The notes under the pieces were generated by a model that was given only the letters and a program-made list of their open reading frames with translations, made no database searches and had not been told where the DNA came from. This document shows, in pieces, positions 28,201-53,020 of a stretch of DNA of 64,000 bases; the first letter of the stretch is position 1, and each line of letters opens with the position of its first letter. Made by a program: the position numbers and the translations under genes. Source of the DNA: an uncultured virus (IMG/VR IMGVR_UViG_2061766007_000491) (lineage: Duplodnaviria > Heunggongvirae > Uroviricota > Caudoviricetes); the IMG/VR virus record IMGVR_UViG_2061766007_000491, one strand, 5' to 3'.

Positions 28201-30918
28201 ATGAGTAAGATAGCAAGGTTGGCAAGCATTGTAGAGAGAGCCGAAAAACAGGCTCTTGTTTTGTTTATAAAGGAGAGTAAGCAGAATGATAATACGGCTG
28301 TAGCAATGCTCAAGAAGCGGGGAGTGCCTGAACCTGAGAAAGTGCTGGAATTGCTCAAAGAGATAACGGTGGATGGGACTGAGAACGGAAAAACGGTGTG
28401 GGATATAAGCAAGACGGGAAAGGAAATACAGCCGTTAGCGGGGTGGTTTTGTTCCACGTGGAACAATGATGACTTGGTACAGGCGAGGGAGAGGGTAGCG
28501 GATACAGTGCATAAGATGTATCGGATACCTAGCGCACGGAACGCTGATCTGACGAAGGTGTGGATGGCGAACAAGGAACTTACCGATTATGAGGAGTGGG
28601 TGAACAAGGCATACGAACAGGACAAAGCAAAGGGGCTAATAGCGGATGCTGAGGAGGGTGAAAAGGTGAATGTGGGAGCCTATGATTTTCCGAAAAAGAT
28701 GCTGGCTTATAGTGATAAGTATGTGGATTGCTATAGGGCAGATACCCCTGCGGATGCTATGTTGTTAGGAGACGGTTATCCATTCTGTATATCGAGGCGA
28801 GACGGTAGCAATATGTTCTATTCTTATAGGATGAATCCAACGACCACAGCGTACTTTTGTTGGTTTAAGGACAAGAATGGGAATAAGACTAAAAAGAATA
28901 TGGTAGTGGTTCATGTGGGAGAGGATGATCGTTATATGGTTACTAAGTCTGAGAATGGTAATTTTCCGAGGGACAGTAAGGCAACTACGATTGAAAAATA
29001 TCCAAAATTGAAAGGTGCAATCAATTCTGGGAAGTTGGTTGTAAAACCAGCAACAGATACGGAGAGTTCCATTAGAGATAAATATAATTTTAAGAGTAAG
29101 ATAACTATTGATGATGTAGAGGGTAAAACGCCTGAATATATTGAGTTGATCCTTGCACAAGGAGTACAGTTGAGTGATGAGGTTTTTGATTATATATTTG
29201 AGAATATAGATAATGGAAATCTACGCACAGGAAATAAGGGTAACTCATTGATAAAGAAGTATGTAGAGAGTGGAATACATAGGTTGACAAAGTATCAGAA
29301 AGATGTATTGATTAAGGCAGGGTATAAAAATGAGTTATGGAGGGCTTTAGAAGTTTATATAAGAAGTCATCTTGCAGTAGGAGAACCCTTAAAGGTAACT
29401 GATTTGAAAAATGTTATAGCACATATAGATAAGTTCGACATAGCTAATAAAGATTCTCTTTTTAGGGATTATGTAACTAAAAAAATATACTTAACAGCAG
29501 AACAAGAGTCTTGTTTGGATAAATTATGTAAATCTAATCCTAAATTAAAGAAAGATTATGAAGATTTGTTAAAAGGATTTCTTATTCCTAAAAGGATTGA
29601 AAATTTGTTTAGGTGGGTAAAAGTAAAAGTTGTTCCAGTTGAAGGTGGTTATGATGTTATTAGTGATTCAACTACAATTTCAATGGATGCTGATGCTAAA
29701 GATTTTGATAATATAATAATTACAATTAAGAAAATACGAAGTGTTAAAGAAATAATTATATCTAATTATAGTAGGGAGAAGATAGATAGAATTAAGTACT
29801 TCCCAAGCATCCCTTCTGATGTTTGGTTATACTTACAGAACAGTTCTATAAATGTATTGCGTTATATTAAGTCTCGTATAGAGAATTTGAATATAGAGGG
29901 TGCATTAGTAGGGGGGGATATAGATGCTATGCAGAATGTGGAGTGTAAAAGGATTAGTGTGAATAGTGATTTAACACCTGGAACTAAGTTACCTAGAATA
30001 GTAGAGGATATATATGTTCACTATAATGTAACTAATAAGTGCTTAGATATTAGTACGTTACCTAGAAAAGTAGAGAATGTTTGTATTTTGAATAGGGGTA
30101 GTTTGTTACATTCAGATTTACAAGGAATACCTGATGAGATAGATGATTTAACAGTGTTTTATAGGGACGATATAAAGTATTTTCCGAAGAGAGTTGGTAC
30201 TTGGCATATAAATTCTGCTTATGGTGAAGGAGAAGTACCACAATGTGTTAAGGATAGTGCTATAAATAAATTAGAGGTGAGTAATGATGTTTTTAGAGGT
30301 ATTCCAGGTAGTAGTTTTGTGACTTGGTTTAGCGAGCGAGTTGGGAAGTTACCTATAGAATCTTTTGTAGAATCCTTTGATTATACGAAGGTTATCTATT
30401 CTAAGAGTGATAAAGGTATAGAGCTACAGGCAATTCACAGAGGTTCAATATATTTTCCGTATATACCTTCAAAAGAATCTCTATCTCGTTTGGTATGTGA
30501 TGGTGATATAAGAATAGCGGGGATATTCAATCTTTCAGATTTACCTAGAGAGATAGTATCTTCCTCTAATACTAATGTTGATAGAATGTTGTATATAGAA
30601 AAGACTTGGTTAGAAACTTTAAGTCTGAATCATCCAGTAGAAGGTGTGAGTGTTCTAATGATACAGAATGTTCATAACTTAAAGCATATAAAGGGGTTAG
30701 AAAATTTTAGGGGATTAAAAAAGATATATGTAACTGACTCGTCTTATTACTCTGATAGGAGGGAATCTCATTTTAGATCAATTAGCGATGATCTATTAGC
30801 AAGTACACCTAAGAATGTTTACATAGATGTAAATAATGATGTAATACAATATGGTGACAATAATGAATCCCTCTCCCTGAGTCCGTTGAGTGTAGCATTG
30901 AACAGTATTATAGATTAG
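28201..30918 (+). CDS. Modular paralogue family member 1 (leader + conserved core + LRR-like variable region + ESL tail)
   Basis: Core YRADT..A...G.GY.FCIS....NMFYSYR...T.YF.WFKD...VVHV...YMVT; L..LP repeats; ends NNESLSLSPLSVALNSIID. Confidence 0.85.
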   Translation: MSKIARLASIVERAEKQALVLFIKESKQNDNTAVAMLKKRGVPEPEKVLELLKEITVDGTENGKTVWDISKTGKEIQPLAGWFCSTWNNDDLVQARERVADTVHKMYRIPSARNADLTKVWMANKELTDYEEWVNKAYEQDKAKGLIADAEEGEKVNVGAYDFPKKMLAYSDKYVDCYRADTPADAMLLGDGYPFCISRRDGSNMFYSYRMNPTTTAYFCWFKDKNGNKTKKNMVVVHVGEDDRYMVTKSENGNFPRDSKATTIEKYPKLKGAINSGKLVVKPATDTESSIRDKYNFKSKITIDDVEGKTPEYIELILAQGVQLSDEVFDYIFENIDNGNLRTGNKGNSLIKKYVESGIHRLTKYQKDVLIKAGYKNELWRALEVYIRSHLAVGEPLKVTDLKNVIAHIDKFDIANKDSLFRDYVTKKIYLTAEQESCLDKLCKSNPKLKKDYEDLLKGFLIPKRIENLFRWVKVKVVPVEGGYDVISDSTTISMDADAKDFDNIIITIKKIRSVKEIIISNYSREKIDRIKYFPSIPSDVWLYLQNSSINVLRYIKSRIENLNIEGALVGGDIDAMQNVECKRISVNSDLTPGTKLPRIVEDIYVHYNVTNKCLDISTLPRKVENVCILNRGSLLHSDLQGIPDEIDDLTVFYRDDIKYFPKRVGTWHINSAYGEGEVPQCVKDSAINKLEVSNDVFRGIPGSSFVTWFSERVGKLPIESFVESFDYTKVIYSKSDKGIELQAIHRGSIYFPYIPSKESLSRLVCDGDIRIAGIFNLSDLPREIVSSSNTNVDRMLYIEKTWLETLSLNHPVEGVSVLMIQNVHNLKHIKGLENFRGLKKIYVTDSSYYSDRRESHFRSISDDLLASTPKNVYIDVNNDVIQYGDNNESLSLSPLSVALNSIID

Positions 30919-30921
30919 ATT

Positions 30922-31413
30922 ATGAGTATCAAGAGTTTACGAAAGATGTGCGAAGAAGCGGAACCGATGACTTTGGATGTAGTGAATGTGTCTAAGGGTG
31001 TGTCCGCTGAAATGTTGTCTGTGGATGAGGCGAACAAGCTGCGGGATGCTGCGAAGGGCATGGGTGTGAATCCCGATCAGAACAGACTTTTATACATAGT
31101 TGTTAGTGGCGAGCAAGTGGCAGGTGGGTTATATGCGTTTGTAGATGAAGAGGTAGTGCGTATGAGTCCTGTAGTGGTGAAGGAATTTACAGGCAAGGGC
31201 GTGGGTGAAATGTTGTGTAAATTAGCTAGAACAGAGTTTCGTGATAACTATGACGACCAGAAGAAGATACTGGAATTAGTAGTGGGTAAGTCACTGACAC
31301 CTACACTGAAAAAAGACGGATTTATCTTGAAAGATAATGTGGAACACGATACAGTGACGGCGAGGCTATTGCCGACTGGCGATAGAGTACAAGAGATATT
31401 AGAGGATGAATGA
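30922..31413 (+). CDS. GNAT-family acetyltransferase
   Basis: VV..EFTGKGVGEML matches acetyl-CoA motif A; leader MSIKSLRKMCEE. Confidence 0.65.
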   Translation: MSIKSLRKMCEEAEPMTLDVVNVSKGVSAEMLSVDEANKLRDAAKGMGVNPDQNRLLYIVVSGEQVAGGLYAFVDEEVVRMSPVVVKEFTGKGVGEMLCKLARTEFRDNYDDQKKILELVVGKSLTPTLKKDGFILKDNVEHDTVTARLLPTGDRVQEILEDE

Positions 31414-31504
31414 TGTTTTAACAGTGTTGGTGTATTTCTTTCTGCCCTTTGTGTTGGTAGGAGGAGCTTTAGCGTTTGTGTGGATAATGACTAAGATGAA
31501 TTAG
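31406..31504 (+). CDS. 32-aa single-TM peptide (not in ORF track)
   Basis: Manual translation MNDVLTVLVYFFLPFVLVGGALAFVWIMTKMN; exactly fills the gap between genes. Confidence 0.55.
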   Translation: MNDVLTVLVYFFLPFVLVGGALAFVWIMTKMN

Positions 31505-31505
31505 T

Positions 31506-32042: not shown

Positions 32043-32051
32043 TGCCTCATA

Positions 32052-32084: not shown

Positions 32085-32085
32085 T

Positions 32086-32571: not shown

Positions 32572-32572
32572 C

Positions 32573-36516: not shown

Positions 36517-37691
36517 TGCTAAAGAAGTTGACAGAGGCATTACAGATGGTTGAAGCTGGTTATGACGGCTATAGCATGAGCAATAATGCTAGGGCTGCTT
36601 ATGATGCAGGGATGATGCCTTTGAGTAAGTGGACAAAGAGCGACATTCTGGATGGTATTAGAGAGGAGTATAACATACCCGAAGAGGTTTACGCTGTGAT
36701 CGCCAAGTTACCTCTGGGGTATTTGCGTGATAAGTTCTTGGAAACGAGGGAGTGGCATCACACTAGCAGTATGTATAACGCAACAGATTTTTACCAGATT
36801 GACTCGGACTTTCTGGATACGGACAATACTGCGGAGGGGATGATTGACTTTCTGAAACAGGACTATGCTGAGTGGAAAGCGGACTACGATAAGGAAAAGG
36901 CAAAGAAAAAAGCGGTGAAGGACAGCAAGGGTGACTTCTGCTATTTTAAGTATCTGGTATGGGGTGGTTCGAGAGCGCATCCCAGAGCGTATGAGGAGGA
37001 GAGTTATGGTTATGTAAAGGGTGATTGGATTTACTTTGCAGACGAGAACGGTAACTTAACAGGGAGAAAGAAGGGGTTATACTCGAATGGTACAGAGGTT
37101 ATTAAGTACCTAGAGCCTGGGGAAAAGATGCCTGTTAAAGAGGAACCTAAGAAAAAAGAAAAGGTAAGTAAACCTAGTGGGAGTGTGAAACCTCGTATAA
37201 GTGTATTTGATGCAGGGGATTCAAGAGGTTCTGAGCGATGGTATGAGTTTGTCACTAAGAATAAGGGTAGGTTCTCTGATTACGATGTTATTGTGGAGTT
37301 AGTAGATAAAGGTGATTTTTATGTGTTAGATAGTAAAGATCATAGTCCATCTTATTGTGTACCTATTTACGGTGTATGGTCTAAGCCTATTAGAGAGGTG
37401 ACTTGTTCCGCTCAAGTAATTCCACTAAGGGATGATAAAGCAGAGTTAAGTACCTGCCCAGAACGCATATTAGGTAGTCTTAATATAAATGGTTTTGAAG
37501 GTGCAGAATTAGGTTTAGAGAATGTAGTTGTAGATATGAATGTAAACTTGACCTACTGCAAGAAACTAAGGACACTTAAAGGGTTGCCACAGGTTAAAGG
37601 AGAGGTGAGGGTGTTGGGTTGTTATGCGTTGAGTCCAGAGGCTATTAAAGAGGCTGAGGATAGAGGTTATACAGTTATAGTAAAAGATTGA
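36513..37691 (+). CDS. Hypothetical protein with leader, conserved phage-type N-domain and LRR-like C-terminus
   Basis: MSNNA..AY..G..PLSKW, EWHHTS..YN.TDFY; C-terminal CKKLRTLKGLP. Confidence 0.7.
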   Translation: MMLKKLTEALQMVEAGYDGYSMSNNARAAYDAGMMPLSKWTKSDILDGIREEYNIPEEVYAVIAKLPLGYLRDKFLETREWHHTSSMYNATDFYQIDSDFLDTDNTAEGMIDFLKQDYAEWKADYDKEKAKKKAVKDSKGDFCYFKYLVWGGSRAHPRAYEEESYGYVKGDWIYFADENGNLTGRKKGLYSNGTEVIKYLEPGEKMPVKEEPKKKEKVSKPSGSVKPRISVFDAGDSRGSERWYEFVTKNKGRFSDYDVIVELVDKGDFYVLDSKDHSPSYCVPIYGVWSKPIREVTCSAQVIPLRDDKAELSTCPERILGSLNINGFEGAELGLENVVVDMNVNLTYCKKLRTLKGLPQVKGEVRVLGCYALSPEAIKEAEDRGYTVIVKD

Positions 37692-37693
37692 TT

Positions 37694-38428
37694 ATGAAGA
37701 ATTTAATTAGACTATTTGAAGAAGATGCCACAGCGTACCTTGCTAGGGTGGTGAACAGTACGGAGGATGCGCAGAGTGCAGTGAGGGCGTTAAGTGCGGT
37801 AGGTCGTATCGGGTTAGACAATGCGAACCTACTCCCTGCTGTTCGGTGGGTAGCGGATGGATACAAGACGAACCACAACCTAGATGCTTGTGTCAATGAT
37901 GTTATTGAGGTAGTGGATAGGCTGGGCAAGAATGCGGAGTTGAAAGACCTTGACTTGGACACTATACAGAAGGAGTATCCTACTCTTGAGGATGTCAAGG
38001 CAGTGTTGGACGCACAGAGTGAGACGGGCATGAAGATGGGTAAGAACGAGACCTTTGACCAGTGGACAGAGCGCATGGGTGAAGTGCATAGAGATATACT
38101 CAAGAAGGTATTGCCCAGCTATGAAGTGATTGAGACTTTGCCTAAGTATAACAGGGAAGTGCAGACGTATGTGTATGGGAGTGTATTGGGGATAGGTGTG
38201 TTGAGTACGAACACTACGGGAGAGTCATTTATGTATTTTGTGGAACGGAGCAGGGTTCCGATGGGTTATTCCACCTGTTCGAGTTGGTTAAAGCGGTTCA
38301 ATTTGGTGCTGGCGATCAGGGATGCGTATAGGATGACGATGCTGGCTTTACGGAGAGGTGTATTCAGACGGTGCAACAGGGCGCAGTATAGAATGGGAAC
38401 AGGTAAGATCAGAAGGACGGAGAACTAG
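37694..38428 (+). CDS. Chimeric hypothetical protein (family-type N-domain + 36085-type domain)
   Basis: LPAVRWVAD...KEYPTLE resembles the 38554 N-domain; C-terminal half matches 36085. Confidence 0.7.
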   Translation: MKNLIRLFEEDATAYLARVVNSTEDAQSAVRALSAVGRIGLDNANLLPAVRWVADGYKTNHNLDACVNDVIEVVDRLGKNAELKDLDLDTIQKEYPTLEDVKAVLDAQSETGMKMGKNETFDQWTERMGEVHRDILKKVLPSYEVIETLPKYNREVQTYVYGSVLGIGVLSTNTTGESFMYFVERSRVPMGYSTCSSWLKRFNLVLAIRDAYRMTMLALRRGVFRRCNRAQYRMGTGKIRRTEN

Positions 38429-40577: not shown

Positions 40578-42714
40578 ATGAACTTGATAGAGCGATTAGA
40601 GTTGGTATTAGACGAGAGCCGTAAGAACGATGATCTGGCGTTGAACCTGCTTGTCAAAGCGGGCGTGGACAAGACCATTGCACCAGAGGTGTTAAAAGCG
40701 TTAGGGGCTATTACAGTGGACGGTGGGGACAATAGTAAGCGAGTGGTGGATATGTCTAAGAACGGCAAGGATATTATTCCTTTGGCGTGGGAGGGTTGAA
40801 AGAGGTGATGAGTTAGATGATAAAGTATTTAAAGAATTATTTTACAATGTATATAAAGGTGCTTTAACAGGTGATACTGTTATAGATAGATACCTAGAGT
40901 TAAGTAACCACCTTTTAACGCCATATCAATCAGAGTGTTTAAAGGATGCAGGGTATAGCCAAGAAGTTGAAAAAGCTGCTAGAACTTATTTATTAAACAC
41001 AGTAAACAGCGGTAAACTATTAAACGCATCTGAAATGCAATCTGCAATAGAGCTATTGGATAAAGGTGATATAACAAAAAGGGATTCTATAGTAAATCAG
41101 TATTTGAGCAAAATGGTTAGCCAAATTAGACCCTTTCGAGTACCTTTATCAAGTTTTAAAAAAGGGAGTGATTCTGAAAAAATATATTGCATTTATGCCT
41201 TAGCATCTCATTTACTTAACCACACACATACGGGTACATTTATCTGTGAAAAACAAGGTGATAAGTTTGTTTTGGAATGTACTGGCCCATTAGGGGACGG
41301 ATTGACTTTTTTTGAGATTAGCTGGATTCCTATAGGGAATGGTACGGATGTCAATGCTATAGTGTCTAAGGGGTTAGAAACAGTTGATATTATTAAAGGG
41401 GCAGATAAGGTTCGTTTTTTGTATTGTGATTTCAGGGAAGTAGAGAGATTTCCTTATTTTGAGGGGTTACAAACATTAGTTATCAATGGAGGCATATTTA
41501 ATGCGAACTTGTTAAAGAATAATAAGTTAGATACATTAAAGGTGTTTAACCTTTCCAGAGATATTGATTTTTCGTCTATAAAGTGTAAGCATTTTGAGAT
41601 AACTTCTGATAGGGTTAAAGACCATACTGTAATTGCACCTAAAGGGGTTGAAGTATTTAATAGCCAGACGTTAGGAAACAAGAAAACATTATCGTCTTTA
41701 CCGAGAACTGTGTCTAAGATGTTTCTTAATAGTGTGCAATCTGAGTTAGAGGGAATACCAGAGGAAATAACAGGGGATTTTAGATTGAAGTTGAAGGATG
41801 GGTTCGCTTTTAGAGAACTAAAGAATTTTCCAAAGAAAATAGGTGGTGAGTTTGAACTTATTTTAGATACGAATGAGGGTATTGACCAAATAAAAACAAT
41901 AGAGGATGTCCCACAGTGTGTTAGAGATTGTGATGTCAATAAGGTATCATGGAATTATACACAGGATATTCCTTTTGGATTAGCACAATTTTATAGAGAA
42001 AAGAATAAGGCTATAGATATTGATACCTTTAAGGCTTATAACACTACCGTAAAAAAAGAGGATGGAAAGACTGTAGTGGTATATGAGAAATACGATTATT
42101 ACATAGATAATTTTAAAACAAGACCTTATAAGGTTATAATAGATACCCGTAAATCTACTAATGCACCATCATATTGTCATTTATCTGTTGCTTTTAATGT
42201 TCCATTGAATGTTATACCTGATATAGTGGAGATAAAAGAGGGTTATGGTGTGACTTTAAGTATATATCGTTCTTTTTATGAAGAGCTTACACTTGACCAT
42301 GATATTAGTGGTATAACTAAGTTGAGTATAGTAGATTGTGCCTTCTTAAAAGAGATCAAAGGTCTTGAACATATAAAGGGTTTAAAGAGTGTTTCGGTAG
42401 ATGATTGCCCTCTCTTGAACCTAGAGAGTCTAAAATCCCAGCTTCCCGAAGGTATTGAGTTGGATTTGGATTATGCCAAGCGTGAATCCCTCACCACACT
42501 GCACACGGTGTTGAATGCTTTATCGGAAGAGGATGCGCCTGTGGGTGATGCTGGTGCTGGTTCTACTACTGGCACAGCGGTGGGGAATGGAACGGTGAGT
42601 GACTTGGGTGAAGTGCCTGAGCCGAAGCTGGCATTGCTGAACGTACCGTACAAGAAGCGCAAGAAGGGTATAAAGGGGTTGATAGCCCTGTTAAGTGCCA
42701 AGTCTGAGCGATAA
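40578..42714 (+). pseudogene. Modular paralogue family member 3, split and lacking the core domain
   Basis: 40578..40799 matches the N-terminus of member 1 up to PLAW; a different frame resumes in the helical repeat (GDELDDKVF); the conserved core is missing. Confidence 0.65.
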
Positions 42715-42742
42715 AAGTCTATATTATAAGAGAGAGTTTGAT

Positions 42743-43105
42743 ATGAGTGATAAAGCGTTTGAACCTGTGAAAGACCTGCCCACTGAGGAGAAAGAGCAGT
42801 ACATAGACTATAAGGAGTTGCCTGTGGAAGATAACCCTGTAGAGTTATCGGCTAAGGTGGATAAGAAGGTTACTGAATTAGCGGAGCGAATAATTGCTGG
42901 TGAGATAGACAAGAGGGCTGCCGATGTGGAACTGATGGAGCTATGTGACGGTGTGGAACTGGCTGCTGCGATGGAGAAGCTGAGTGCAGCGATCACGGCA
43001 GAGGCAGACAAGCACAGGAGTCTCCCTTCGTACAGTGGATTGCCTGTATTTGTGAATTGTGGCTTAAAACGCCTACAGAGGGCATTAGACGGATTGAACG
43101 ACTAA
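42743..43105 (+). CDS. Hypothetical acidic protein with family-type C-terminal helix
   Basis: GTCTATATTA upstream; ends LKRLQRALDGLND. Confidence 0.65.
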   Translation: MSDKAFEPVKDLPTEEKEQYIDYKELPVEDNPVELSAKVDKKVTELAERIIAGEIDKRAADVELMELCDGVELAAAMEKLSAAITAEADKHRSLPSYSGLPVFVNCGLKRLQRALDGLND

Positions 43106-43175: not shown

Positions 43176-46100
43176 ATGAGAGCGATCAACATACTGGAAC
43201 AACTATTAGCCGAGGGGCAGGGTGTAGATAACACTGTCTTAGGTATGCTGAGGAATGCAGGTATAGGTAAGCCAGGTAAAGAGGGTGATGAATCGAGGCA
43301 GAACTTATTGTGGGCGTTAAAGAATTTGCGTATTAGTAATGAGAGGAATGCACCTACATTGTACGACTATTCTGAGAACCCGAACCAGAGAAGCACTGGA
43401 AAGAACATAATCCCGATATGCAAGTACCTGATAGACTTTGTGGCTGAGAATCCAGATAAGCCTATACCTGGTGTAATAGAGCATCTGGGTGATCTGATAA
43501 AGTTAAAGCACAGTTTAGTTACGACACAGAGAAAAAGCTGGGAGGCATTACAGCAGAACGGTAAGACGAATACTATTGATAAGCTGGAATCGTGGTTACA
43601 GAACGAGAGAGGGAAAGCTGAGAACCGTATTCAGCACAAGACAGGAGCGTATGATTTTCCGCATTTAGAGGTGTATAGTGATGCTAACATAGATGTATAT
43701 AAAGCGGATACCCCTGATGAGGCTATTGAGCTAGGAGCGGACAATTACACATTCTGCATTAGTGATACGAGTGGTGGGAACCAGTTTTATACATACAGGT
43801 TTGGTACACAACCTGGTTGGGGTGCTAAACAGAGAACGTCATGCTACTTTGTATGGTTCAAGGATAGGCAGGGGAATAAGACACACGATAAGATGGTGGT
43901 TGTCCATGTGGGAGAGAACGGTGAATACATGGTTACGGAGTCCCAGAACGGTTTATTTCCCTGGTGGAGTGAGTCTAAGTTATTGGAACATTATCCGATG
44001 CTAAGACCTGCATTGAAGTACATGGTATATAAGAAGCCTAGCGATCAGGAACAGATAGCACGGTATTTTAACGAGTATGTAACAGCAACCTATGAGGAGA
44101 TTCCAGAGGGTACAGATATGAGCCAAGTTATGAATTATAACTTAGCTAAGTATGACCCCAAGTATCTGGACATTATCATTAGTACAGGTTGTCAGTTAAA
44201 CGACCATGCTTTTGAATATGTATTCAAGCAAGTGGATGGGAGCGACCTCGTAAATGGCAATCATGGTGATTCTATTACAAAGAAGTATATAGAGATAGGA
44301 ATGCACCCTTTAACATCCGAACAGATGGATATGTTAAGGGATGCTGGGTATAGTAAAGAGGTGGATAGAGCGCAAGAGGTGAATATCAGGCGTGACATAG
44401 CTAGTAGTCGGGTTATAAGTAAACAAGACCTAGATTTCATAGTACAACGTACAAGTAAAGAGGAGTTAGTTGACCCGAACAATGCAATACGTAAATACAT
44501 TGTAGATAACGCAGCACCTTACGACCGTATGAATAGAAGTACGGTGGAATATCTATTACGGCTTGGGTTACTAGATTTAGCGTATGCGAGAGAGTTATTC
44601 CTTATTAAGGAACAGAGACATTCACAGTGGGATGATGCTGTGTTTAAGGTAGCCTTTGAATATGTGGATAAGGGGGATATAACTAAACAAAACTCCGCAG
44701 TACGCAGGTTTATACGGAACCTGAACGACTGTGAACTTACGGATGGTATGCGTAAAATGCTCAAGGATAGTGGATATGAAAAAGTTGTAACTAAGTTTGA
44801 TAAGGATAAGGCTAACTTTTTATGGAAGCGGTGGCAAGAACGCAATGAGGGTAATGTTACTGTAGAAGAGACACCTAAAGGGTATATCATTAAATATCAC
44901 TATGAAGCTGGTAAGTGGCGGTCTGACCTGATTGATATACCGAACACACCGAAAAAACCAGTTATTGAGGTTTGGTTAAAATCTTATTGGGACGTTACTA
45001 TGGATTTTAATAGTAATGATGCACACTATACTACTAAGAAACTGCCTATAGTCAAAGACTTAGATGGTAAGGTACTCAAAGACTATCATTTGGAATTAAA
45101 GAATGTTCCACCTTTAACTGAGTTTCAAGTGTCGTGGGATAATATAAAGTCACTAAAGTTAGATAGTTTTAAGCTAAAAAATATGCAGGGACTTCCAGAA
45201 GTGCCTAAAGATCGCCAACTTATAATAGATTGTTCTAACGCTTCATTAGAGGGGTTAAAAGGTAGTGGTTTTAGTTTAACAATAGATTGGGGATTGGATA
45301 GTCTGAAAGGAGTACCTAGCAAACTGAGTACGTTTGTGTTATCTATGAACAAGGGTCAATTTGACTCGTTAAAAGATAAATCCATGCCTGACGAGGTAGG
45401 GGTTATGAATATAACTCGTGATTGGGGTGGAGACATAGATGTATTGCCTAAACGGATAAGCATTTTGAAAACACATAACCCTTCTGATAAGATTACAGCT
45501 AAAGGTGTAGAGTATTTGGGTAAACTGCCTTCTATAGAGGATATACCCACTAAGAATGTAAAATGGTATGCGAATTTGACCACTGAGGAGAATCTAAGAG
45601 CAATATCTTATAATGGTTCGGATTCAGGCTATTATAGATCACACGGCATATTTTATGGTGCTAACGCTGTTAAGCCCTTGAAACCTACGGTAGAGACAGA
45701 TTATCTTTATGGGGACGACTACGATGTATATGTATATCCTTTTGTATCTTCGTTAAAGGGTTTGATATGTCAGAAGGTGATTAAGATAGATAAGCAATAT
45801 AAGTACGGTGAAGTGGTTAAGCAGACGAAAAAGTCTATCACGAGCTACACACTGTATGTGTATCAGAACGTCTTGATAAAGAGCTTAGAGGGTATTCCCA
45901 CCAAGAAGAGTTATACTACTGTGTACCTGTATAACTGTCCGATACTGAGCGACATAAGTGCATTATTGAAGTGTGACAGGCTAGAGTCTGTGTTTATCTC
46001 TAAGTGTCCAAAGGTGAGTAAGGATGTTATAGATAAGTTAAAGGCGAAGGGTATTCAAGTGAATAAGATAGATAGGGTTTACATAAGGAACAATCTGCCT

Positions 46101-46184
46101 GAATTGAATCAGTGGAATGGTAAATACTCTACCTATGAATCCCTGTTACGACTAAGTACAATACTGAATGGATTATATGACTGA
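43176..46184 (+). CDS. Modular paralogue family member 4
   Basis: Core YKADT..YTFCIS..NQFY.YR..CYFVWFKD; repeated helical units; LRR-like region; ends TYESLLRLSTILNGLYD. Confidence 0.85.
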   Translation: MRAINILEQLLAEGQGVDNTVLGMLRNAGIGKPGKEGDESRQNLLWALKNLRISNERNAPTLYDYSENPNQRSTGKNIIPICKYLIDFVAENPDKPIPGVIEHLGDLIKLKHSLVTTQRKSWEALQQNGKTNTIDKLESWLQNERGKAENRIQHKTGAYDFPHLEVYSDANIDVYKADTPDEAIELGADNYTFCISDTSGGNQFYTYRFGTQPGWGAKQRTSCYFVWFKDRQGNKTHDKMVVVHVGENGEYMVTESQNGLFPWWSESKLLEHYPMLRPALKYMVYKKPSDQEQIARYFNEYVTATYEEIPEGTDMSQVMNYNLAKYDPKYLDIIISTGCQLNDHAFEYVFKQVDGSDLVNGNHGDSITKKYIEIGMHPLTSEQMDMLRDAGYSKEVDRAQEVNIRRDIASSRVISKQDLDFIVQRTSKEELVDPNNAIRKYIVDNAAPYDRMNRSTVEYLLRLGLLDLAYARELFLIKEQRHSQWDDAVFKVAFEYVDKGDITKQNSAVRRFIRNLNDCELTDGMRKMLKDSGYEKVVTKFDKDKANFLWKRWQERNEGNVTVEETPKGYIIKYHYEAGKWRSDLIDIPNTPKKPVIEVWLKSYWDVTMDFNSNDAHYTTKKLPIVKDLDGKVLKDYHLELKNVPPLTEFQVSWDNIKSLKLDSFKLKNMQGLPEVPKDRQLIIDCSNASLEGLKGSGFSLTIDWGLDSLKGVPSKLSTFVLSMNKGQFDSLKDKSMPDEVGVMNITRDWGGDIDVLPKRISILKTHNPSDKITAKGVEYLGKLPSIEDIPTKNVKWYANLTTEENLRAISYNGSDSGYYRSHGIFYGANAVKPLKPTVETDYLYGDDYDVYVYPFVSSLKGLICQKVIKIDKQYKYGEVVKQTKKSITSYTLYVYQNVLIKSLEGIPTKKSYTTVYLYNCPILSDISALLKCDRLESVFISKCPKVSKDVIDKLKAKGIQVNKIDRVYIRNNLPELNQWNGKYSTYESLLRLSTILNGLYD

Positions 46185-46623
46185 TTTGATAATTGAAAAC
46201 GGAGTGGTTATCGGTTATAATGGCACTGCGAAGCACTTGGTGATACCGAGCGGGGTGAAGGGTATAGGCGATGGAGCGTTTGCGGGGTGTACTACCCTAG
46301 AGAGTGTCTGTTTCCCGAACGGCTGCGAGTGGATAGGCGAGGGTGCGTTTAGGGGCTGTGACAGGCTTTCTAAGGCAGTTTTCAGTGAGACCCTTATCCG
46401 TATAGAGGATGATGCTTTCAAGGGCTGTAGCGGGCTTACAGAGCTTTATTTACCCTCTTCTGTGCGTGAGGTGGGATATAGTGCATTTGGGGACTGCAAG
46501 GGGTTACGGTGTGTAAGTCTGAGTGAGGGGTTAGAGTTGAGGGGCAAGGGTGTATTTGCACGGAGTGGTGGGAAAGAGCGCATTAAATTGAACAAGCGAG
46601 TGAGAATACTGGATTTGATATGA
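46177..46623 (+). CDS. BspA/TpLRR-type leucine-rich repeat protein
   Basis: Repeated IG..AF.GC..L..V..P units. Confidence 0.85.
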   Translation: MTDLIIENGVVIGYNGTAKHLVIPSGVKGIGDGAFAGCTTLESVCFPNGCEWIGEGAFRGCDRLSKAVFSETLIRIEDDAFKGCSGLTELYLPSSVREVGYSAFGDCKGLRCVSLSEGLELRGKGVFARSGGKERIKLNKRVRILDLI

Positions 46624-49526
46624 GACTAGGATACTTATTAGAGGCACTAAACAACCCTTACGGCGATCACTCTGCGATTGATACCCTCTATGGCACACCC
46701 ACTGAGCCTATCATGTTGCCTATCCCTGTAGATACAGCACTTAGAGAGGGCAGGAATGTGGATGATGCTATGGATGCGTTATTAAAGCACAGCGGATACG
46801 ATGGGGAAGGGAACAAGGCTTTAAGGGAGAGGGTCATTAAGGCGGTGAATGCGTTACCTGTAGTGTGGGCTAGTCCGAACGGTCAGAACGCACGAACGGG
46901 GAAGGATGCCCTGCCTATCTTGACATGGTTCCTGGGTATATGGAACGGCACAGCGGGTACGATACAGCATGATTTAGAGCAGGTGAGCGATCTAGTAGTG
47001 TCTAAGAACGGTATGAAGTCCACGAGGGGCAAGTGGTTAGACGAGTTACAGAGGCGTTATCCCACTATGGACAAGTTCAGGGCTTTTATAGAGCGGGAGA
47101 GGGAGAACCCAGCGAACAAGGTCGAGGATGAAACTGTGGAGGGGTACGATTATCCGAACCCGTTTTACAGTGATTCTAAGGTGGATGTGTATAAGGCGAG
47201 TACGATCAGTGATGCGATCAAGTACAGCAAGGGGTACACATTTTGTATAGGCAGGCGGGATGGGAGCAACCTATTCTACGGGTATAGGATTGCTGCTGAT
47301 GCGCCTGAAAGTACGGTGTATTTTTGCTGGTTCAAGGGGCCTCATGGTGAAAAGACGCACGACAATATGTGTGTGATTCATGTTAGCTCTAACGGCAAGT
47401 ATAGAATGACCAATGCTGGCAACACGAACGGGAGTCCTGTGGTGGATAAAGAGACCGTGTTACGGGAATACCCTGCGTTAAAGGGTGTGTTGGATAAGAT
47501 GTATAGCGAGCCTCTGGATGATGAAGAGAAAGTGGTGTCCTCTGTGAGACCGTTCACTGTGATAGACTTGAACGATACGACTAAGGGCTATACGAGGAAG
47601 CAGATAGCGATGTTGATAGGGAATGCCTGTCGGTTTGGGGACGATTACTTTGAATGGGTATATGAAACGCTGGATGGAGGGGACTTAGAAAGTGGAGACT
47701 CCCTGATACGGAAATACTTGGCTACTGGTGCGAACCGACCCACTGAGGAGCAAGAGGAGAGGCTTGTGAGGGATGGCTGGGGCGAGTATGTGGAATATAA
47801 CTTGAAGCAGTACACCAAGCAGATGCGTGAGGTACAAGAACACGATAATAAATATACCTTAGAGCCTGTGATTGTATCAGGTAAAACAATAGCCTATAAA
47901 GTTAAGACTAATAACGCAGGTTATTCTGCTGTAAATTTATACGCTCCGTTAGATGTACCGTTACAGATACAAAACGGTGGGAATACCTTTATAAAGTTAA
48001 AAGGCGATCTTTGGAATGATGATGCTTTATCTAATCTACAGCTAGAGATTAAAGGGCCTTATCTGAGTGAACTTTATATAATAGATAATAACCGCATAAA
48101 GAGTATAGAGTCCTTACCTCACCTGCCTATAACACATATAGGCATAGAGAATACGAATATAAGTGGTGATGTAGATGTCAGTAACATATATAACTTAGAT
48201 TATATCTCTATAGTAAAATGCAATAAGGTACTAGGTGTAAAAGGAAACCCTGGTATATTAGGCAGGGTTTTATCTATAAGTGTAAAAGACTGTGTTAATT
48301 TTGAAAGAGTAGAAGTTAAAACTAATGTCTATCCAAAGATAGACCTTTATAATGTGGGTATTCACGATATAAGTTATATTACGACACCCTTCTCAAAGCT
48401 ATTTATAACAGAATGCAAGAAACTAAAATCTGTAAACGGCATTTATGATAAGCTAGGTGAAGTAGAGGAGTTATTTATACAGAGTTGTCCTAACTTAGAG
48501 GATGTATCTGATTTTAGACAATACAGGTCAACAGAGCCTATAAAGCAGGTAGTGATTACTAATAATCCTAAAATACGGGAAGAGGACTATATCAAGTATA
48601 TTCTGCCATTATATAAGCCTTTGCCTATAAACAGGCAAAAAGCAACGAATGATTTTGTAAGCAGGTCTTTCCCGAAGGGTATGCGTGTTTTTAAGGACAC
48701 CCTACAGGTATATGGCAAAACAGGGAAAGAAGCCTATAATATGGAAAAGTATTATGTGCATGATTTTCAATATACATCCCCATATAAGCATCCCTTAGTT
48801 GTACCTCTTGCAGATGTAAACAGTTACGGGAATGTTAAGGATTATTCAGGGTTGCTGAAAGTCGGGTCTCTAACTATAGCGAATAACTATCTAATGACTG
48901 ATTTTGAACCTATCTCTCACATAGAGATACGAACATACTTACACATAAGTACCTGTGGGAGTTTATTTAGTACAAAGGATTGTCCTGCTGTAGAGGGTTT
49001 AAGCATAGATAATTGTAATAACATACAAGAGGTGCTTATACCTAACAAGAACAAAAAAACGCTTATATCTACCTGTAGTCCGTCTTTAATAAAAGGTAAC
49101 GGTGCGGTTATACCAGAGTTACAATTACATTTTATAGGCTATAATCATGCGGATAAGAAACTAGACTTAGCTGCTATAAAAAGTCGAGTAAATAAATTAG
49201 AGCTAACGACTAATAGTTATGTAAACGAATCTGCACCCTTTGAAAGACTACAAGTAAAAGTACATAACTTAGTGCTTTCTAACTTATCAAATATCAAGTC
49301 ATTAGAGGGCTTCAATAAAGATAACATACCTGACGTTATAGATATTATATCATGGTATCAGATGGGTATGTCCCCTGAGACGTTTATAAAACAAGTAGAA
49401 GCAAACGATTATTTTATATTGAGGCATATAAACGCAAACTCTTTCTTTAGGGAAGATAAATGTCCACTTAAAAAATACTATGAAAAGCATTGGAGTGATT
49501 TGTTAGACGCTAACCTAGAATTTTAA
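46620..49526 (+). CDS. Modular paralogue family member 5 (no ESL tail)
   Basis: Core YKAS...KGYTFCIG..NLFY.YR..YFCWFK..HDNMCVIHV; LRR-like region. Confidence 0.85.
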   Translation: MRLGYLLEALNNPYGDHSAIDTLYGTPTEPIMLPIPVDTALREGRNVDDAMDALLKHSGYDGEGNKALRERVIKAVNALPVVWASPNGQNARTGKDALPILTWFLGIWNGTAGTIQHDLEQVSDLVVSKNGMKSTRGKWLDELQRRYPTMDKFRAFIERERENPANKVEDETVEGYDYPNPFYSDSKVDVYKASTISDAIKYSKGYTFCIGRRDGSNLFYGYRIAADAPESTVYFCWFKGPHGEKTHDNMCVIHVSSNGKYRMTNAGNTNGSPVVDKETVLREYPALKGVLDKMYSEPLDDEEKVVSSVRPFTVIDLNDTTKGYTRKQIAMLIGNACRFGDDYFEWVYETLDGGDLESGDSLIRKYLATGANRPTEEQEERLVRDGWGEYVEYNLKQYTKQMREVQEHDNKYTLEPVIVSGKTIAYKVKTNNAGYSAVNLYAPLDVPLQIQNGGNTFIKLKGDLWNDDALSNLQLEIKGPYLSELYIIDNNRIKSIESLPHLPITHIGIENTNISGDVDVSNIYNLDYISIVKCNKVLGVKGNPGILGRVLSISVKDCVNFERVEVKTNVYPKIDLYNVGIHDISYITTPFSKLFITECKKLKSVNGIYDKLGEVEELFIQSCPNLEDVSDFRQYRSTEPIKQVVITNNPKIREEDYIKYILPLYKPLPINRQKATNDFVSRSFPKGMRVFKDTLQVYGKTGKEAYNMEKYYVHDFQYTSPYKHPLVVPLADVNSYGNVKDYSGLLKVGSLTIANNYLMTDFEPISHIEIRTYLHISTCGSLFSTKDCPAVEGLSIDNCNNIQEVLIPNKNKKTLISTCSPSLIKGNGAVIPELQLHFIGYNHADKKLDLAAIKSRVNKLELTTNSYVNESAPFERLQVKVHNLVLSNLSNIKSLEGFNKDNIPDVIDIISWYQMGMSPETFIKQVEANDYFILRHINANSFFREDKCPLKKYYEKHWSDLLDANLEF

Positions 49527-49543
49527 CACAAAGAGACCGATTT

Positions 49544-52500
49544 ATGAGCATTAGAACACTAGAACAGTTATTGAACGGCACACACCCTACGGATACACAC
49601 CCTGCTATGAGGGTACTACCTGCATATACCTATCCCACCGATGAGGGTCAAAGTGTGCGGGGCATGGCATTAGGCATCCTGAGCAGGGCTGGTGTGAAAG
49701 ATGCGGAGGGTGTTCTGGACACCTTAGCGTCTCTGTCAGTGTCGAATGATTTAGGGGCTAGAACGATAGCACAGGTGGAAAAGAACGAGAAAGCCCTTAT
49801 CCCTGTAGTGAACTGGTATGTGGGTGCTAGGGATTGGAGTCAGCCCTATACGGACAGTGATGAAGCTAGTGTAATTGAGGATATAGGGGATGCAATACGG
49901 AAGATATATAGTTATGAGACCACACGGAATTACAATGGTGGGTTGACGGCGATACAAGCGAGGTACAGGACTCTGGGCAAGCTGAATGCTTGGTTAGAGG
50001 CAGAGAGTAAAGATAACAGGAATATCAAGATGGACAGGGGAGGGTACAACTTCCCTGAGCTACTAGCATACAGTGATAAGGGTGTGGATGTATATAAGGC
50101 GAGCAACCCGATGGAGGCGATAGCATTATCGAAGGGGTATAGTTTCTGCATTGGACAGCCTGGGGGGAATAATATGTTTTATTCCTACCGCAACGACCCT
50201 AAAGACGCTACTGCCTACTTTGCATGGTTTAAGGATGCTGAGGGGAATAAGACTCACGACAATATGTGTGTGTTGCACGTTGGGAGTGATGGGCGGTATA
50301 GATTGACGGGATCGGGCAATCACGGTTCTCCTGTTGTGAGCAAGCGGGAGGTACTGAGTGAATACCCTGCTTTGAGAGGAGCATTGGAATCTGGTAAATT
50401 GACTGCTGATGAATACAGTGAGGACGAAAAGGCAGTACAGTTTGTTCGACCTATGGCAAGGATTGAGCTAAATGGACGGACAAAAACATTCTCCCCTACC
50501 AGCATAGCCATTCTGATAGGCAAGGGTTGTGTATTCAGCGATGAATTTTTTGATTACGTTTGGGAGGAAGTAGATAAAGGGAGGTATAGGGATGCAGGGT
50601 ATGATTCACTGATTAGGAAGTATGTACTGGCTGGGTTCACACGGCTAAGTCCCCACCAGAGAGAGGTGTTAGAAGGGTCTGGATATGGCAGGGAGGTACA
50701 AGCGTCTGAGGTTAGGTATAAGAGGCATTGGGTACAGGAGCAGATGGCATATTTTGAAAACTTAATTGCTAGTGGGAAAATGAGCATGGAGGAGAAAGAG
50801 GATGGATACCATATTGAATCGAGGAAGGTAGAGCCTATTAAGCTATACAGTCCATTGGACAAGAACATTATTATAGACGATGTGCATACCCTAGAGATAC
50901 TTGGAAATGTCTGGGATGACCATAACATTAAGAGTCTCCGTATAGGTGATGATGAAATAAAAAATACAATTAGTGAGCTAACCATTAGGGATAATGATAC
51001 TCTGACTAGAATTGAGCTTGACCCGACATTTAAGAGGTTACACGCACTTGGTTTAACTATTACGAACTGTACCAGACTTGAGACGCTAGAGGGTTTGAAC
51101 TTTAGGGCGGTTACTGGTACATTTGAGATACACTACTTACCTAAACTAAAAAATCTAAAGGGGATAGAATCACTGCCAGCATTGCCGAGGCAGTTTATGA
51201 TATGGTATTGCTCTGATTTGGAATCCCTAGATGGGTTAGATACTGCCTATGGGGACGAGGAATATCAATTACGTTTGAATGGGTTGCCCAAACTGCATAA
51301 CATGAAACACCTTCCTAAAGGGACACATCTTTTATCCTTAACTGATGTAGGACTTAACAGCGTAGAGGGCATTGAATGGTTATTGGATATGGATGACCCT
51401 GATTATGAGGGTAGGGAGATTTTAAAGAAGGTAGCATACTCTATCATGGAATTTTACAATGAGAAGTATGATGTAATGAAGGAGAGGATACCTGCTGATG
51501 CACTAGCCAAGCTATATGTGTATGTCCAGGAAAGTGGGCTTGATTTCTTTAATGAGAATATATATCACTTCACGGGTGAGGTTCCGCCAAAGGGTGCTAA
51601 GACCCTTGTTATCAATGGACATAAATATCTGAATAGGGTAGTAGGTCACATGGACACGAGTAATTATATTCCAAAGCTGGAATATATGCCCAAGAAAGCG
51701 GATACACTTAAGTACAATAACAAGCTATGTGCTGACCTAGAGGGGATAACCCCTAACATCCTTGAACTCACCATAAACTCGGATTGTGTTGGAAACCTAC
51801 ACAGTTTAAGGGGAATACGTAAAGTTGGCACACTCAATATGCGAGGTGAGATACCTGCTGAATGGATAGAGTCACTTATAGATGACAAAGAGGCTGATAT
51901 AAGAATTTTAGATATAGGTTATTATGGCGATAATCCTGAACTAGCAGATGCTTTTGTTAGTGCCTTAGAACGATATATAAGTAAACACCTCACTACCAAG
52001 ATACACGCTATACCTCGCTTTAACAGTGAATATGTAAGGAAAAAGTTTAAGGAACGATTATCCGATAACCTAACAACGGATGAATCCCTGACTCCCTGCC
52101 ACACACTGATGCGCACATTGAATGCGGTGTCAGAGGGTTGGATGGACAAAGTGAGTGGGTTCTTAGACAAGGTTGACCCTGATCGGTCTAAGATGCGTGG
52201 TTTAGCCAAGACAGCCCTTGCTCTTGCTGGCGGTGGCGAGCTTGACGATCTGGTGGGACTGATAAAAGACCGTTCCACCGATGCCGAAGTGGACGATGAC
52301 CGTGCTACCGACATATTGAGGGAAGTGAGTCTGATCTTAGGCAAGACCGATGCTGAGGTGAACCAATTTACCCGTCTCCCTGAGAAAGAGCGCACGGAGA
52401 GGGTCAAAAAGGCACTGCAAGACGTGATCTATCGCAAGTACAAGATGAACCGTTCTGAGGGTCGGGCAATGGAAAGGCTGTTATACAGGCGCATAAAGGA

Positions 52501-53020
52501 TGCCCTCTGGAATAAGTATAAATGCACTTTAGGCGAAAGCCTAAACGGTCATGCCCAGCCTGACACTCTGGGTGAATCAATCACCCACAAGGCAAAAGCA
52601 CGGAACGAGAGCCTGTCTAAGCCCTTGCAAAGCCCTGACTGGTATAACCATACCACCCACCACATAAAAGTGTCTCACAAGGCAAATACGGGCGTTTTTG
52701 AGGGGCTTCCACCCACAGTAAACTTCGAGGGTGAAGTGATGGAACTCACCACTACCGAGAGCGATAACGACTCTCGCTACGGTCATGTCAAGCCCGACTT
52801 AAAAGGTCATGCTATGCCTGACACTACCGAGGCTAACGAAGTAGATACCATAGTAGCGAACGTACATAGGCTTATAGAGAGGGACTTGAGCGAGCAAGAC
52901 CTAGAGAGTCCTGAGTTCAAGAAGGAACTGGCTAAGATGTGCATGAGGTTCGCCAACAGCGACAAACGCACTGCTAAGAAGGCGTTTATAAAAACACTTA
53001 AAAATTTTATACAAAAATAA
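49544..53020 (+). CDS. Modular paralogue family member 6 with C-terminal extension
   Basis: Core YKAS...KGYSFCIG..NMFYSYR; clear LRRs (LETLEGL, LKNLKGI, LESLDGL); internal TDESLTP..LMRTLNAVSE, then about 300 further residues. Confidence 0.85.
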   Translation: MSIRTLEQLLNGTHPTDTHPAMRVLPAYTYPTDEGQSVRGMALGILSRAGVKDAEGVLDTLASLSVSNDLGARTIAQVEKNEKALIPVVNWYVGARDWSQPYTDSDEASVIEDIGDAIRKIYSYETTRNYNGGLTAIQARYRTLGKLNAWLEAESKDNRNIKMDRGGYNFPELLAYSDKGVDVYKASNPMEAIALSKGYSFCIGQPGGNNMFYSYRNDPKDATAYFAWFKDAEGNKTHDNMCVLHVGSDGRYRLTGSGNHGSPVVSKREVLSEYPALRGALESGKLTADEYSEDEKAVQFVRPMARIELNGRTKTFSPTSIAILIGKGCVFSDEFFDYVWEEVDKGRYRDAGYDSLIRKYVLAGFTRLSPHQREVLEGSGYGREVQASEVRYKRHWVQEQMAYFENLIASGKMSMEEKEDGYHIESRKVEPIKLYSPLDKNIIIDDVHTLEILGNVWDDHNIKSLRIGDDEIKNTISELTIRDNDTLTRIELDPTFKRLHALGLTITNCTRLETLEGLNFRAVTGTFEIHYLPKLKNLKGIESLPALPRQFMIWYCSDLESLDGLDTAYGDEEYQLRLNGLPKLHNMKHLPKGTHLLSLTDVGLNSVEGIEWLLDMDDPDYEGREILKKVAYSIMEFYNEKYDVMKERIPADALAKLYVYVQESGLDFFNENIYHFTGEVPPKGAKTLVINGHKYLNRVVGHMDTSNYIPKLEYMPKKADTLKYNNKLCADLEGITPNILELTINSDCVGNLHSLRGIRKVGTLNMRGEIPAEWIESLIDDKEADIRILDIGYYGDNPELADAFVSALERYISKHLTTKIHAIPRFNSEYVRKKFKERLSDNLTTDESLTPCHTLMRTLNAVSEGWMDKVSGFLDKVDPDRSKMRGLAKTALALAGGGELDDLVGLIKDRSTDAEVDDDRATDILREVSLILGKTDAEVNQFTRLPEKERTERVKKALQDVIYRKYKMNRSEGRAMERLLYRRIKDALWNKYKCTLGESLNGHAQPDTLGESITHKAKARNESLSKPLQSPDWYNHTTHHIKVSHKANTGVFEGLPPTVNFEGEVMELTTTESDNDSRYGHVKPDLKGHAMPDTTEANEVDTIVANVHRLIERDLSEQDLESPEFKKELAKMCMRFANSDKRTAKKAFIKTLKNFIQK

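Follow-up and report, generated by a model that had tools for sequence, protein, structure and literature searches.

The 64,000-nucleotide stretch analyzed here (the window throughout), phage DNA filed as the uncultured virus IMGVR_UViG_2061766007_000491, carries an array of six related genes between positions 28201 and 53020. All six lie on the plus strand, as do nearly all open reading frames (ORFs) of the window. A first-pass annotation made from the letters alone had placed these six ORFs correctly (Table 1) and had given them one ordered architecture, namely a leader, a helical N domain, a conserved core, one or more helical repeats, a leucine-rich repeat (LRR)-like C-terminal half, and a conserved tail. 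That architecture holds for five full copies (28201, 38554, 43176, 46620, and 49544), but the copy at 40578/40723 is broken and has no core. The genes are referred to below by their start positions (g28201 and so on). As the following comparisons show, they encode paralogous modular phage proteins whose cassette, flanked by the helical repeat and a 17-residue tail, is exchanged in one piece.

All coordinates are window positions; P labels denote proteins of relatives, L labels contigs of relatives, and X labels sequencing runs. The public runs in which the stretch occurs are bovine and sheep gut metagenomes, and contigs from four studies were compared. Stretches of the window without contig cover in X8, X10, and X13 were excluded as evidence. 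None of the 20 sequencing runs listed for the stretch holds RNA data.

Table 1 Features of the array, its parts, and its surroundings (aa, amino acids; GC3, GC content at third codon positions)
Feature	Position	Strand	Remarks
Member 1, 905 aa	28201..30918	+	Leader to Glu25, helical N domain, Cys core (Cys196), two helical repeats, LRR-like cassette, tail
Member 2, 673 aa, shortest complete copy	38554..40575	+	Sole full-length model
Member 3, 5' fragment, 73 aa	40578..40799	+	Leader and first ~70 residues of N domain; TGA at 40797; profile E 9.5e-14
Member 3, rest of the copy, out of frame with the fragment, 663 aa, GTG start	40723..42714	+	Helical repeats, LRR-like cassette, tail at residue 588, 63-aa extension
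Member 4, 1002 aa	43176..46184	+	Leader to Glu13, core (Cys194), three helical repeats, LRR-like cassette, tail
Member 5, 968 aa	46620..49526	+	43-residue leader with insert, core (Cys209), regular 22-26-residue LRR array, no tail motif
Member 6, 1158 aa	49544..53020	+	Leader with insert (Glu34), core (Cys202), LRR-like cassette, internal tail motif, conserved extension
Leader, member 2, 12 residues	38554..38589	+	Ends at invariant Glu before Gly
Leaders, members 1, 3, 4, 5, 6	28201-28275, 40578-40616, 43176-43214, 46620-46748, 49544-49645	+	Member 3 placed by eye
Cys core, member 2	39055..39387	+	Asp168 to Glu278, Cys188
Cys cores, members 1, 4, 5, 6	28726-29064, 43692-44051, 47184-47528, 50087-50428	+	
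First helical repeat, member 2	39505..39633	+	Last conserved block before cassette
First helical repeat starts, members 1, 3, 4, 5, 6	29161, 40804, 44187, 47625, 50525	+	
Cassette, member 1, exchangeable	29338..30864	+	Low GC3; other cassettes in P0013, P0014, P0015
Cassette, member 2, exchangeable	39606..40519	+	LRR solenoid; 896 other letters instead in X4
Cassette, member 3	40788..42482	+	Unmatched in L030 DNA; flanks at 86% and 97%
LRR-like C part, member 4	44976..46136	+	Left border approximate
Cassette, member 5	47880..49526	+	GC3 0.25-0.38 against 0.47-0.68 upstream; P0002-P0005 10-44% against ~70-100% upstream
Cassette, member 6	50743..52080	+	Between helical repeat and internal tail motif; weak contig joint (side 26)
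Tail motif, member 2	40522..40572	+	Helix on disordered linker; Glu-Ser-Leu ... Leu-Asn
Tail motifs, members 1, 3, 4, 6	30865-30915, 42484-42534, 46137-46181, 52082-52132	+	
Stand-alone BspA-type LRR protein, 151 aa	46168..46623	+	Between members 4 and 5; GC3 0.51 (normal)
246-aa protein with array N domain	37688..38428	+	No core, no LRR; profile E 4.1e-07
136-aa acidic ORF overlapping end of member 3	42695..43105	+	C terminus tail-like by eye; syntenic in L030 (4905-5315) and L032 (1550-1930, 126 aa)
Candidate giant tail fiber/adhesin ORF, >2313 aa	1-6942	+	5'-open; Thr 13%, Gly 12%, Ser 11.5%

Constant module and tail

The N-terminal ~370-450 residues link the five full copies, with all 10 possible pairs aligning by BLASTP at 25-36% identity. 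This constant module, some 400 residues long, runs from the leader through a helical domain and a core with an invariant Cys to a helical repeat, and the core motif written down in the first-pass annotation recurs among the 41 invariant columns in an alignment of the five. The leader had been described as ending in Glu followed by Gly or Ser. Two Glu residues are in fact invariant there, and in 23 of 23 close family members Gly or Ser comes directly after the second. The invariant leader Glu is residue 12-13 in three copies (the 40578 fragment being read by eye) and residue 25, 34, or 43 in the others. In both g46620 and g49544, 20-30 extra residues are inserted exactly where the first helix turn meets the Glu-Gly/Ser site; no such insert occurs in an orthologue, P0008. 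In P0002 and P0006, relatives of g46620 and g49544, the same ~11-residue Cys-containing insert stands just before the leader Glu-Gly and looks like a small duplication of the Glu-Gly site.

The AlphaFold2 model of full-length g38554 (mean predicted local distance difference test, pLDDT, of 80.4) opens with a helix at residues 2-26 that includes the leader, stays helical to 122, is of low confidence at 129-144, and continues with a helix at 145-156. The strands of an alpha/beta core follow at 161-240, and then a helical repeat region at 277-395, a beta solenoid at 411-640, a disordered linker at 644-661, and a terminal helix at 662-672.

A conserved tail had been assigned to all copies. It is present in most of them but is absent from g46620, and it is internal in g40723, where 63 residues come after it, and in g49544, where it lies at residue 847 with 296 residues after it. 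The tail motif, 17 residues of the form Glu-Ser-Leu ... Leu-Asn, occurs in 18 of 27 close family members, never within their first 350 residues, as compared with 0.17 proteins per replicate in shuffled controls, and it is missing from the whole g46620 orthogroup. We speculate that the tail, starting as it does with Glu-Ser, could be a second processing site. The C terminus of the acidic ORF at 42695 resembles it, which suggests that the tail is a portable signal. The N domain is also reused, as the ORF at 37688 combines it with a different C-terminal half, an arrangement that fits a reusable targeting or docking module. ORFs 36085-36516 and 37688-38428 (both +) have a common C-terminal domain (58% over 126 residues) with an Arg-rich motif at its end.

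Leucine-rich repeats and composition of the C-terminal halves

The proposal that all C-terminal halves are LRR-like is borne out for g38554 by its model and for g46620 by a periodic motif; for the other four it is suggested by sub-threshold Pfam LRR matches or by homology to these two. Residues ~385-645 of g38554 match LRR structures with a VIA Z of 14.3 and a root-mean-square deviation of 3.6 over 220 residues, and 50 of the 50 listed rows are LRR proteins. The best structural match of the solenoid is the LRR of the TSH receptor, and the LRR domains of SspH1 and IpaH match the cassette at Z 13.0-13.7. The pLDDT of the modeled cassette is mostly 80-97, with short dips to 78-79. An LRR motif is found 10 times in g46620 at spacings of 22-26 residues, as compared with a mean of 2.1 and a maximum of 7 in shuffles. 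The canonical LRR regular expression does not rise above shuffles in the other five members; it is evidently insensitive, as it fails on g38554 despite the clear LRR model. The window's C-terminal halves do not reach the Pfam LRR cut-offs (LRR_4, E 0.0086; LRR_EndoS, E 0.0048). One relative, P0012, passes LRR_5 (33.7 bits, cut-off 27.7), and another, P0017, falls below it (23.3 bits).

These halves had further been said not to align between copies. Mostly there is indeed no BLASTP hit, but an alignment of g28201 with g40723 covers 574 residues at 25%. Among g38554, g46620, and g49544, short overlaps reach into the first repeats, and g40723 and g43176 overlap briefly at the C-terminal end.

The visible step to AT-rich sequence is real and is seen at synonymous sites. 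GC3 drops from ~0.45-0.68 to 0.17-0.38, with the steepest change at codon ~420 of g46620, the background of seventeen other genes pooled being 0.46. The same direction is found in relatives, with GC3 lower in the C part of 12 of 12 genes. GC3 is normal in the extension of member 6 (~300 residues). All cassettes are open reading frames of 270-550 codons. That of g46620 has no homologue at E<=0.001 among proteins of 301-959 aa.

Cassette exchange between related phages

The idea of a constant module with exchangeable binding modules finds its main support in orthologous proteins, which are 80-100% identical in the N module and the tail but 7-47% identical in the stretch between the two. At the g46620 locus, P0002, P0003, and P0004 are mostly 90-100% identical over residues 1-400 and then 10-44%, the exception being the first 50-150 residues of P0003 and P0004 (60-86%). 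At the g28201 locus, the first ~360 residues are mostly 72-100% identical to those of P0013, P0014, and P0015, apart from one 40-residue block at 55-60%; identity then falls to 7-42% for ~500 residues and returns to 82-94% in the last 17. As these three proteins differ from one another in like manner, the locus has at least four cassettes. The LRR part at the g49544 locus is 12-47% identical to P0012 and P0017; the N module there is mostly 52-97% once its variable opening stretch of ~160 residues is set aside, and the C-terminal extension begins with ~160 residues at 55-97%. For g38554, P0011 represents the same allele (80-100% throughout) and P0019 differs in the cassette.

Swaps are also visible in the DNA of related phages, where the first-pass annotation had advised looking for them. 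The blastn match of L029 (93.7%) goes no further than 29337, where the first helical repeat is close to its end. In run X4, from another study, a contig joins 39605 to 40520 across 896 other letters (side 151), a joint reaching from the helical repeat to a point two bases short of the tail codons. In an X10 contig, 43216-43649, the N domain after the leader, is replaced by 459 other letters. An X10 joint from 50742 to 52081 (side 26) gives only a hint. The contrast in identity between orthologues, taken with the X4 replacement, identifies the LRR parts as exchangeable cassettes, and their replacement is the outcome of recombination with very divergent alleles in the phage population.

Alleles of the window also persist elsewhere. 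L034 and L035 match whole genes at 88-91%, and the g46620 allele recurs at ~95-96% in X4 and X10, from two further studies. In shared alleles, the ratio of nonsynonymous to synonymous substitution rates (dN/dS) ranges over 0.19-0.50 for the C part as compared with 0.07-0.26 for the N part; it is higher in the C part in two of four pairs (0.50 versus 0.12 and 0.31 versus 0.07) and equal in the other two. Judged by these ratios, selection on the C part is relaxed or partly diversifying, which differs from decay.

Long DNA repeats between the paralogues of the window were not found. The only repeats between copies are of 76-284 bp at 68-79%, three of them in cores and one between ORFs 36085 and 37688. 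The absence of long shared repeats argues for exchange between genomes and not for a program within one. A target of a diversity-generating retroelement (DGR) was considered and rejected, as no reverse transcriptase occurs among the 48 ORFs scanned in the 64-kb window and the differences are whole-cassette replacements.

At the position of g46620, L033 (1357-3147) has a shorter member of 596 aa with an acidic C terminus and no tail, located between a stand-alone LRR_5 gene and the g49544 orthologue. This replacement implies that whole members are exchanged, not cassettes alone.

Rearrangement of the third member

The copy at 40578/40723 had been counted as sharing the common architecture. No core is found in it; the 73-aa ORF stops at 40797 and the remainder runs in another frame. 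By comparison, the related metagenome contig L030 has an intact gene of 942 aa at the member-3 position, flanked by the g38554 and g43176 orthologues. The match of this contig to the window runs at 86% as far as 40787, then lapses, and resumes at 97% from 42483. Contigs from three runs of three studies leave the window sequence at this same base, 40787, and their 30-base continuations agree at 29 or 30 positions. The intact gene in L030 and the shared break imply that member 3 of the window is a lineage-specific rearrangement in which the core was lost and the frame broken.

Core family and fold

A search with an N-module profile returns 743 representative proteins at E<=1e-3, of which 15 score at E<=1e-30; the close family is small, with 11 clusters. 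By profile similarity, the core is a member of a wide, unnamed viral family. The match lies near the N terminus of its members, with a median of 59 residues before and 298 after it in 165 sequences scored, and the fusion partners of the wider family include ankyrin, LRR, HEAT/Arm, and DUF4116 repeats, GNAT, phage lysozyme, and DUF5824. Each of four large carrier phage records has one copy, so that the six-copy array appears as an expansion in this lineage. In the GenBank phage collection, a search with a member of the wider family finds one 595-kb uncultured phage only; tblastn with g46620 and megablast with 28201-31200 return no match there. The six array proteins have no usable match in Pfam or PHROGs, and the constant module hits no Pfam family at E<=0.1, the NEL domain included.

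The core had been taken for a possibly enzymatic, Cys/His-containing module. Its Cys is present in all 132 aligned members, together with Tyr-Arg (100%/98%), Asn (94%/92%), Glu (97%), and conserved Tyr-Phe, Lys, and Thr. The His is another matter, as the column that holds it in the close family is Asp in 38%, His in 36%, Tyr in 11%, and Gln in 7%. Owing to this variability a Cys/His enzyme is not indicated, and a papain or NlpC/P60-like Cys-His-Asn triad, which we had considered, was dropped for the same reason. The core model is confident (pLDDT 89.4) and sets the invariant Cys at the start of a short helix. Searched against BFVD, it finds 8 rows at E<=0.001, all of them uncharacterized viral models. 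One structural match is an ankyrin protein annotated in a Marseillevirus metagenomic bin, which points away from a tail-specific role; one weak row is a PA5oct protein annotated as structural (E 3.3e-3). GNAT rows reach Z 3.5-4.7 over ~90 residues, within the stated noise range of the tool. A sequence search of the PDB with the core profile returns nothing at E<=1.

The suggestion that the core is PcfJ-like is not supported by its sequence. PF14284 has no match in the six proteins (E<=0.1) or in the 4 carrier phage records (0/4 at E<=1); its cut-off is 25 bits, and PcfJ of pCF10 itself scores 148.9 bits. Nor is PcfJ among the 25 most-matched of the 89 Pfam families hit by 66 wider members (E<=1). 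Comparison of profiles fails likewise, as hhalign with pCF10 PcfJ gives E 0.28 and 0.63 with a shallow PcfJ profile (7 sequences, mostly Enterococcus). The order of motifs in the core and in PcfJ is similar by eye, in one insignificant alignment only. Weak BFVD rows are named 'PcfJ like' (E 0.03-0.16, prob 0.63-0.94), a feature-based atlas lists at rank 21 (score 0.86) a cluster with PcfJ on 21% of its members, and the PDB holds no solved PcfJ structure for comparison. On pCF10 (L037 15874-17984), the PcfJ gene directly adjoins a gene annotated as belonging to the Cas9 inhibitor family AcrIIA9, a hint that PcfJ-domain proteins occur in anti-defense neighborhoods.

Proposed role of the array

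The motif hydrophobic-hydrophobic-x-Glu-Gly/Ser falls within the first 30 residues of 60 of 133 wider members, as compared with a mean of 1.7 and a maximum of 6 in control windows. In this motif the leader resembles capsid targeting sequences of the T4 type. The internal proteins of T4 are described as carrying a targeting sequence of ~10 residues that is cut off once and is all that they share (PMC8442874), and as a diverse, injected anti-restriction set in which only the targeting sequence is common (PMC3012670). The prohead proteases of T4 and of giant phages are reported to cleave after Glu, with targeting sequences of 10-20 residues (PMC5694885). A Peptidase_S77 is encoded in all four large phage records that carry the family.

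Our favored proposal, which we put at a little short of an even chance, is that the array encodes host-protein-binding effectors that act inside the host cell and are probably loaded into the head and delivered. The proteins would serve within the cell as binders or effectors, each LRR cassette recognizing a different, fast-changing host protein, for which defense components are the obvious candidates. The constant module would supply a shared function. One part of that function is probably head loading and delivery with the DNA by way of a leader cut after Glu, a step suggested by the likeness of the leader to T4-type targeting sequences; the other part would be an activity or a docking role of the Cys core. 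The exchange of cassettes in related phages suggests an arms race over host targets. A fuller scheme, which we hold to be doubtful and clearly less probable, would have the array be a capsid-loaded, injected repertoire of variable receptors whose leader and tail are both cut by the head protease, with LRR binders on a Cys enzyme of new fold that modify host defense proteins and are re-aimed by cassette exchange between fixed flanks.

Several observations weigh against delivery from the head or against an enzymatic module. The four records with Peptidase_S77 were chosen by size, and this protease is frequent in large phages in any case. Among the 48 ORFs scanned, which cover the 64-kb window only, neither a head gene nor a prohead protease was found, so that processing cannot be tied to this phage. 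The family A polymerase and DnaB replication genes are presumably not T4-like. The model of g38554 puts the leader inside the long helix 2-26 instead of in an exposed linker. In none of the four large carriers (0/4) is the T4 late-promoter motif TATAAATA present upstream of the family gene, a weak point, as the carriers may use promoters of other types. The invariant polar residues of the core are only Cys, Tyr, Arg, Asn, and Glu, which make no recognizable catalytic set, and its fold has no informative match in the PDB (none by Foldseek at E<=0.001; best VIA-align Z 4.9 among 48,161 chains). LRRs are, moreover, common in surface adhesins.

Some of these points would be expected of unpackaged cytoplasmic effectors that are made after infection, their shared N terminus being the first helix of a domain and their constant module an enzyme or adaptor brought to host proteins by the LRR. 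The helical setting of the leader and the lack of head genes in the window agree with this reading, as do the position of the array amid same-strand replication and nucleotide-metabolism genes, the start of a short helix as the site of the invariant Cys, which is often so for nucleophiles, and the presence of SspH1 and IpaH LRR domains among the best matches to the cassette. Against it, members of a very wide family are enriched in the leader motif at a set, short spacing from the start, the inserts of 20-30 residues exactly before the Glu-Gly site fit a detachable tag better than a domain core, and the lysozyme fusion in the wider family suits an ejected protein. T4 internal-protein genes, too, are found outside the head gene cluster. 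We regard unpackaged effectors as rather unlikely. A place on the virion surface, with the N module as an anchor and the LRR binding variable host surface molecules, would make the array a set of accessory receptor-binding or adhesion proteins. A conserved N terminus, a recombining C terminus, and several paralogues are the classic pattern of phage receptor-binding proteins, and both the stand-alone BspA-type LRR gene within the array and the weak PA5oct 'structural' row (E 3.3e-3) could be read in the same way. Nevertheless, the array lies ~21 kb downstream of the candidate tail fiber, amid DNA-metabolism genes; the models have no fiber, beta-helix, or trimer-like coiled coil; the core is fused in the wider family to modules usual in intracellular proteins (ankyrin, HEAT, and GNAT); and a Glu-ending leader suits head-internal and not tail proteins. 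Surface proteins thus appear decidedly improbable.

The sharp GC3 step, the broken copy, and the g46620 cassette without a detectable homologue among proteins of 301-959 aa might instead mark the C-terminal halves as recent foreign DNA or decaying remnants with no maintained function, the cassettes being products of neutral turnover. The data already weigh against this, and we consider it very improbable: all cassettes are open frames of 270-550 codons, dN/dS in the shared alleles is 0.19-0.50 and so below 1, the g38554 cassette is modeled confidently as a solenoid, the g46620 allele recurs in two further studies at ~95-96%, and the lower GC3 of the C part is stable in 12 of 12 genes of relatives.

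Comparison with known systems

IPI, IPII, and IPIII, internal proteins of T4, like the array proteins, place a short shared leader ending in Glu before diverse payloads and occur in several copies per genome, with a repertoire that is highly variable between related phages. In the array, however, some 400 residues including the Cys core are conserved and not a leader alone, and the payloads are LRR cassettes instead of small unrelated proteins. The IpaH/SspH (NEL) effectors of Shigella and Salmonella similarly join a target-selecting LRR to a constant module with a key Cys, but in the array the order is reversed, with the LRR C-terminal, the protein is from a phage, and Pfam finds no NEL domain. 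The likeness is in the common LRR fold only. Mosaic tail fibers and multi-tailspike proteins share with the array a conserved N part, a recombined C part, and several paralogues per genome; the array differs from them in its setting, folds, and fusion partners, and its cassette is bounded on the right by the conserved 17-residue tail.

PcfJ-domain proteins (PF14284) are comparable to the core in that both present an uncharacterized domain on mobile elements, although the core has no sequence or profile match to PcfJ of pCF10. A DGR survey mentions a PcfJ-like motif upstream of variable regions (PMC5758913). Polymorphic toxin and effector systems likewise combine a constant N module with recombined C modules in many alleles per population. 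Unlike in those systems, the variable part of the array is a binding scaffold and not a toxin domain, and no immunity genes are evident.

We rate the array as a variation on targeted internal proteins and on mosaic binding proteins, built on an unnamed domain family. In the literature searched we found no description that combines leucine-rich repeats with a capsid targeting sequence, and none of a phage system in which a large conserved module is re-aimed by swaps of LRR cassettes. Should the proteins prove to be delivered or early effectors, they would form the first family from phages in which LRR cassettes re-aim a large conserved module, a design familiar in bacterial pathogens and in the immune receptors of animals and plants. 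As the wider family (743 representative clusters) has no name, fold, or literature, any function established here would carry over to the annotation of many genes in large uncultured phages. With their clean borders, the cassettes offer a handle for target discovery and for tracking phage-host arms races in rumen metagenomes.

Neighboring genes and minor observations

The replication block of the window encodes an SNF2 helicase, DnaB, a primase, a family A polymerase, a ligase, a thymidylate kinase, a dUTPase, and an S-adenosylmethionine (SAM) lyase. The polymerase is at most 27.6% identical to any entry of the GenBank phage collection. A small ORF just 3' of its gene contains two runs of 10 N (20057-20066 and 20214-20223). 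The candidate tail fiber ORF at 1-6942 has no Pfam or PHROG match and is followed downstream by glycosyltransferase genes. An ORF at 8685-9146 (+) of 153 aa weakly matches the helical-repeat part of the family profile (E 9.6e-4, 67 ORFs). The small ORFs found 3' of four of the members are unrelated to one another.

Unrelated ORFs at 20274, 23917, 24610, 25598, 26991, 30922, 35471, 36513, and 37688 (all +), the SAM lyase among them, begin with a similar amphipathic helix. Its pattern is Met, 2-5 residues, a hydrophobic residue, Glu or Asp, any residue, Leu, and later Glu, and it is leader-like by eye only.

The peptide motif Gly-His-Ala-Gln/Met-Pro-Asp-Thr, variants included, occurs five times (49592, 52550, 52808, 53813, and 53837, all +), once in the leader insert of g49544, twice in its C-terminal extension, and twice at the start of ORF 53789-54244. 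No DNA repeat underlies it. ORF 53789 also aligns with residues 1080-1140 of g49544 (33%, E 5.6e-6).

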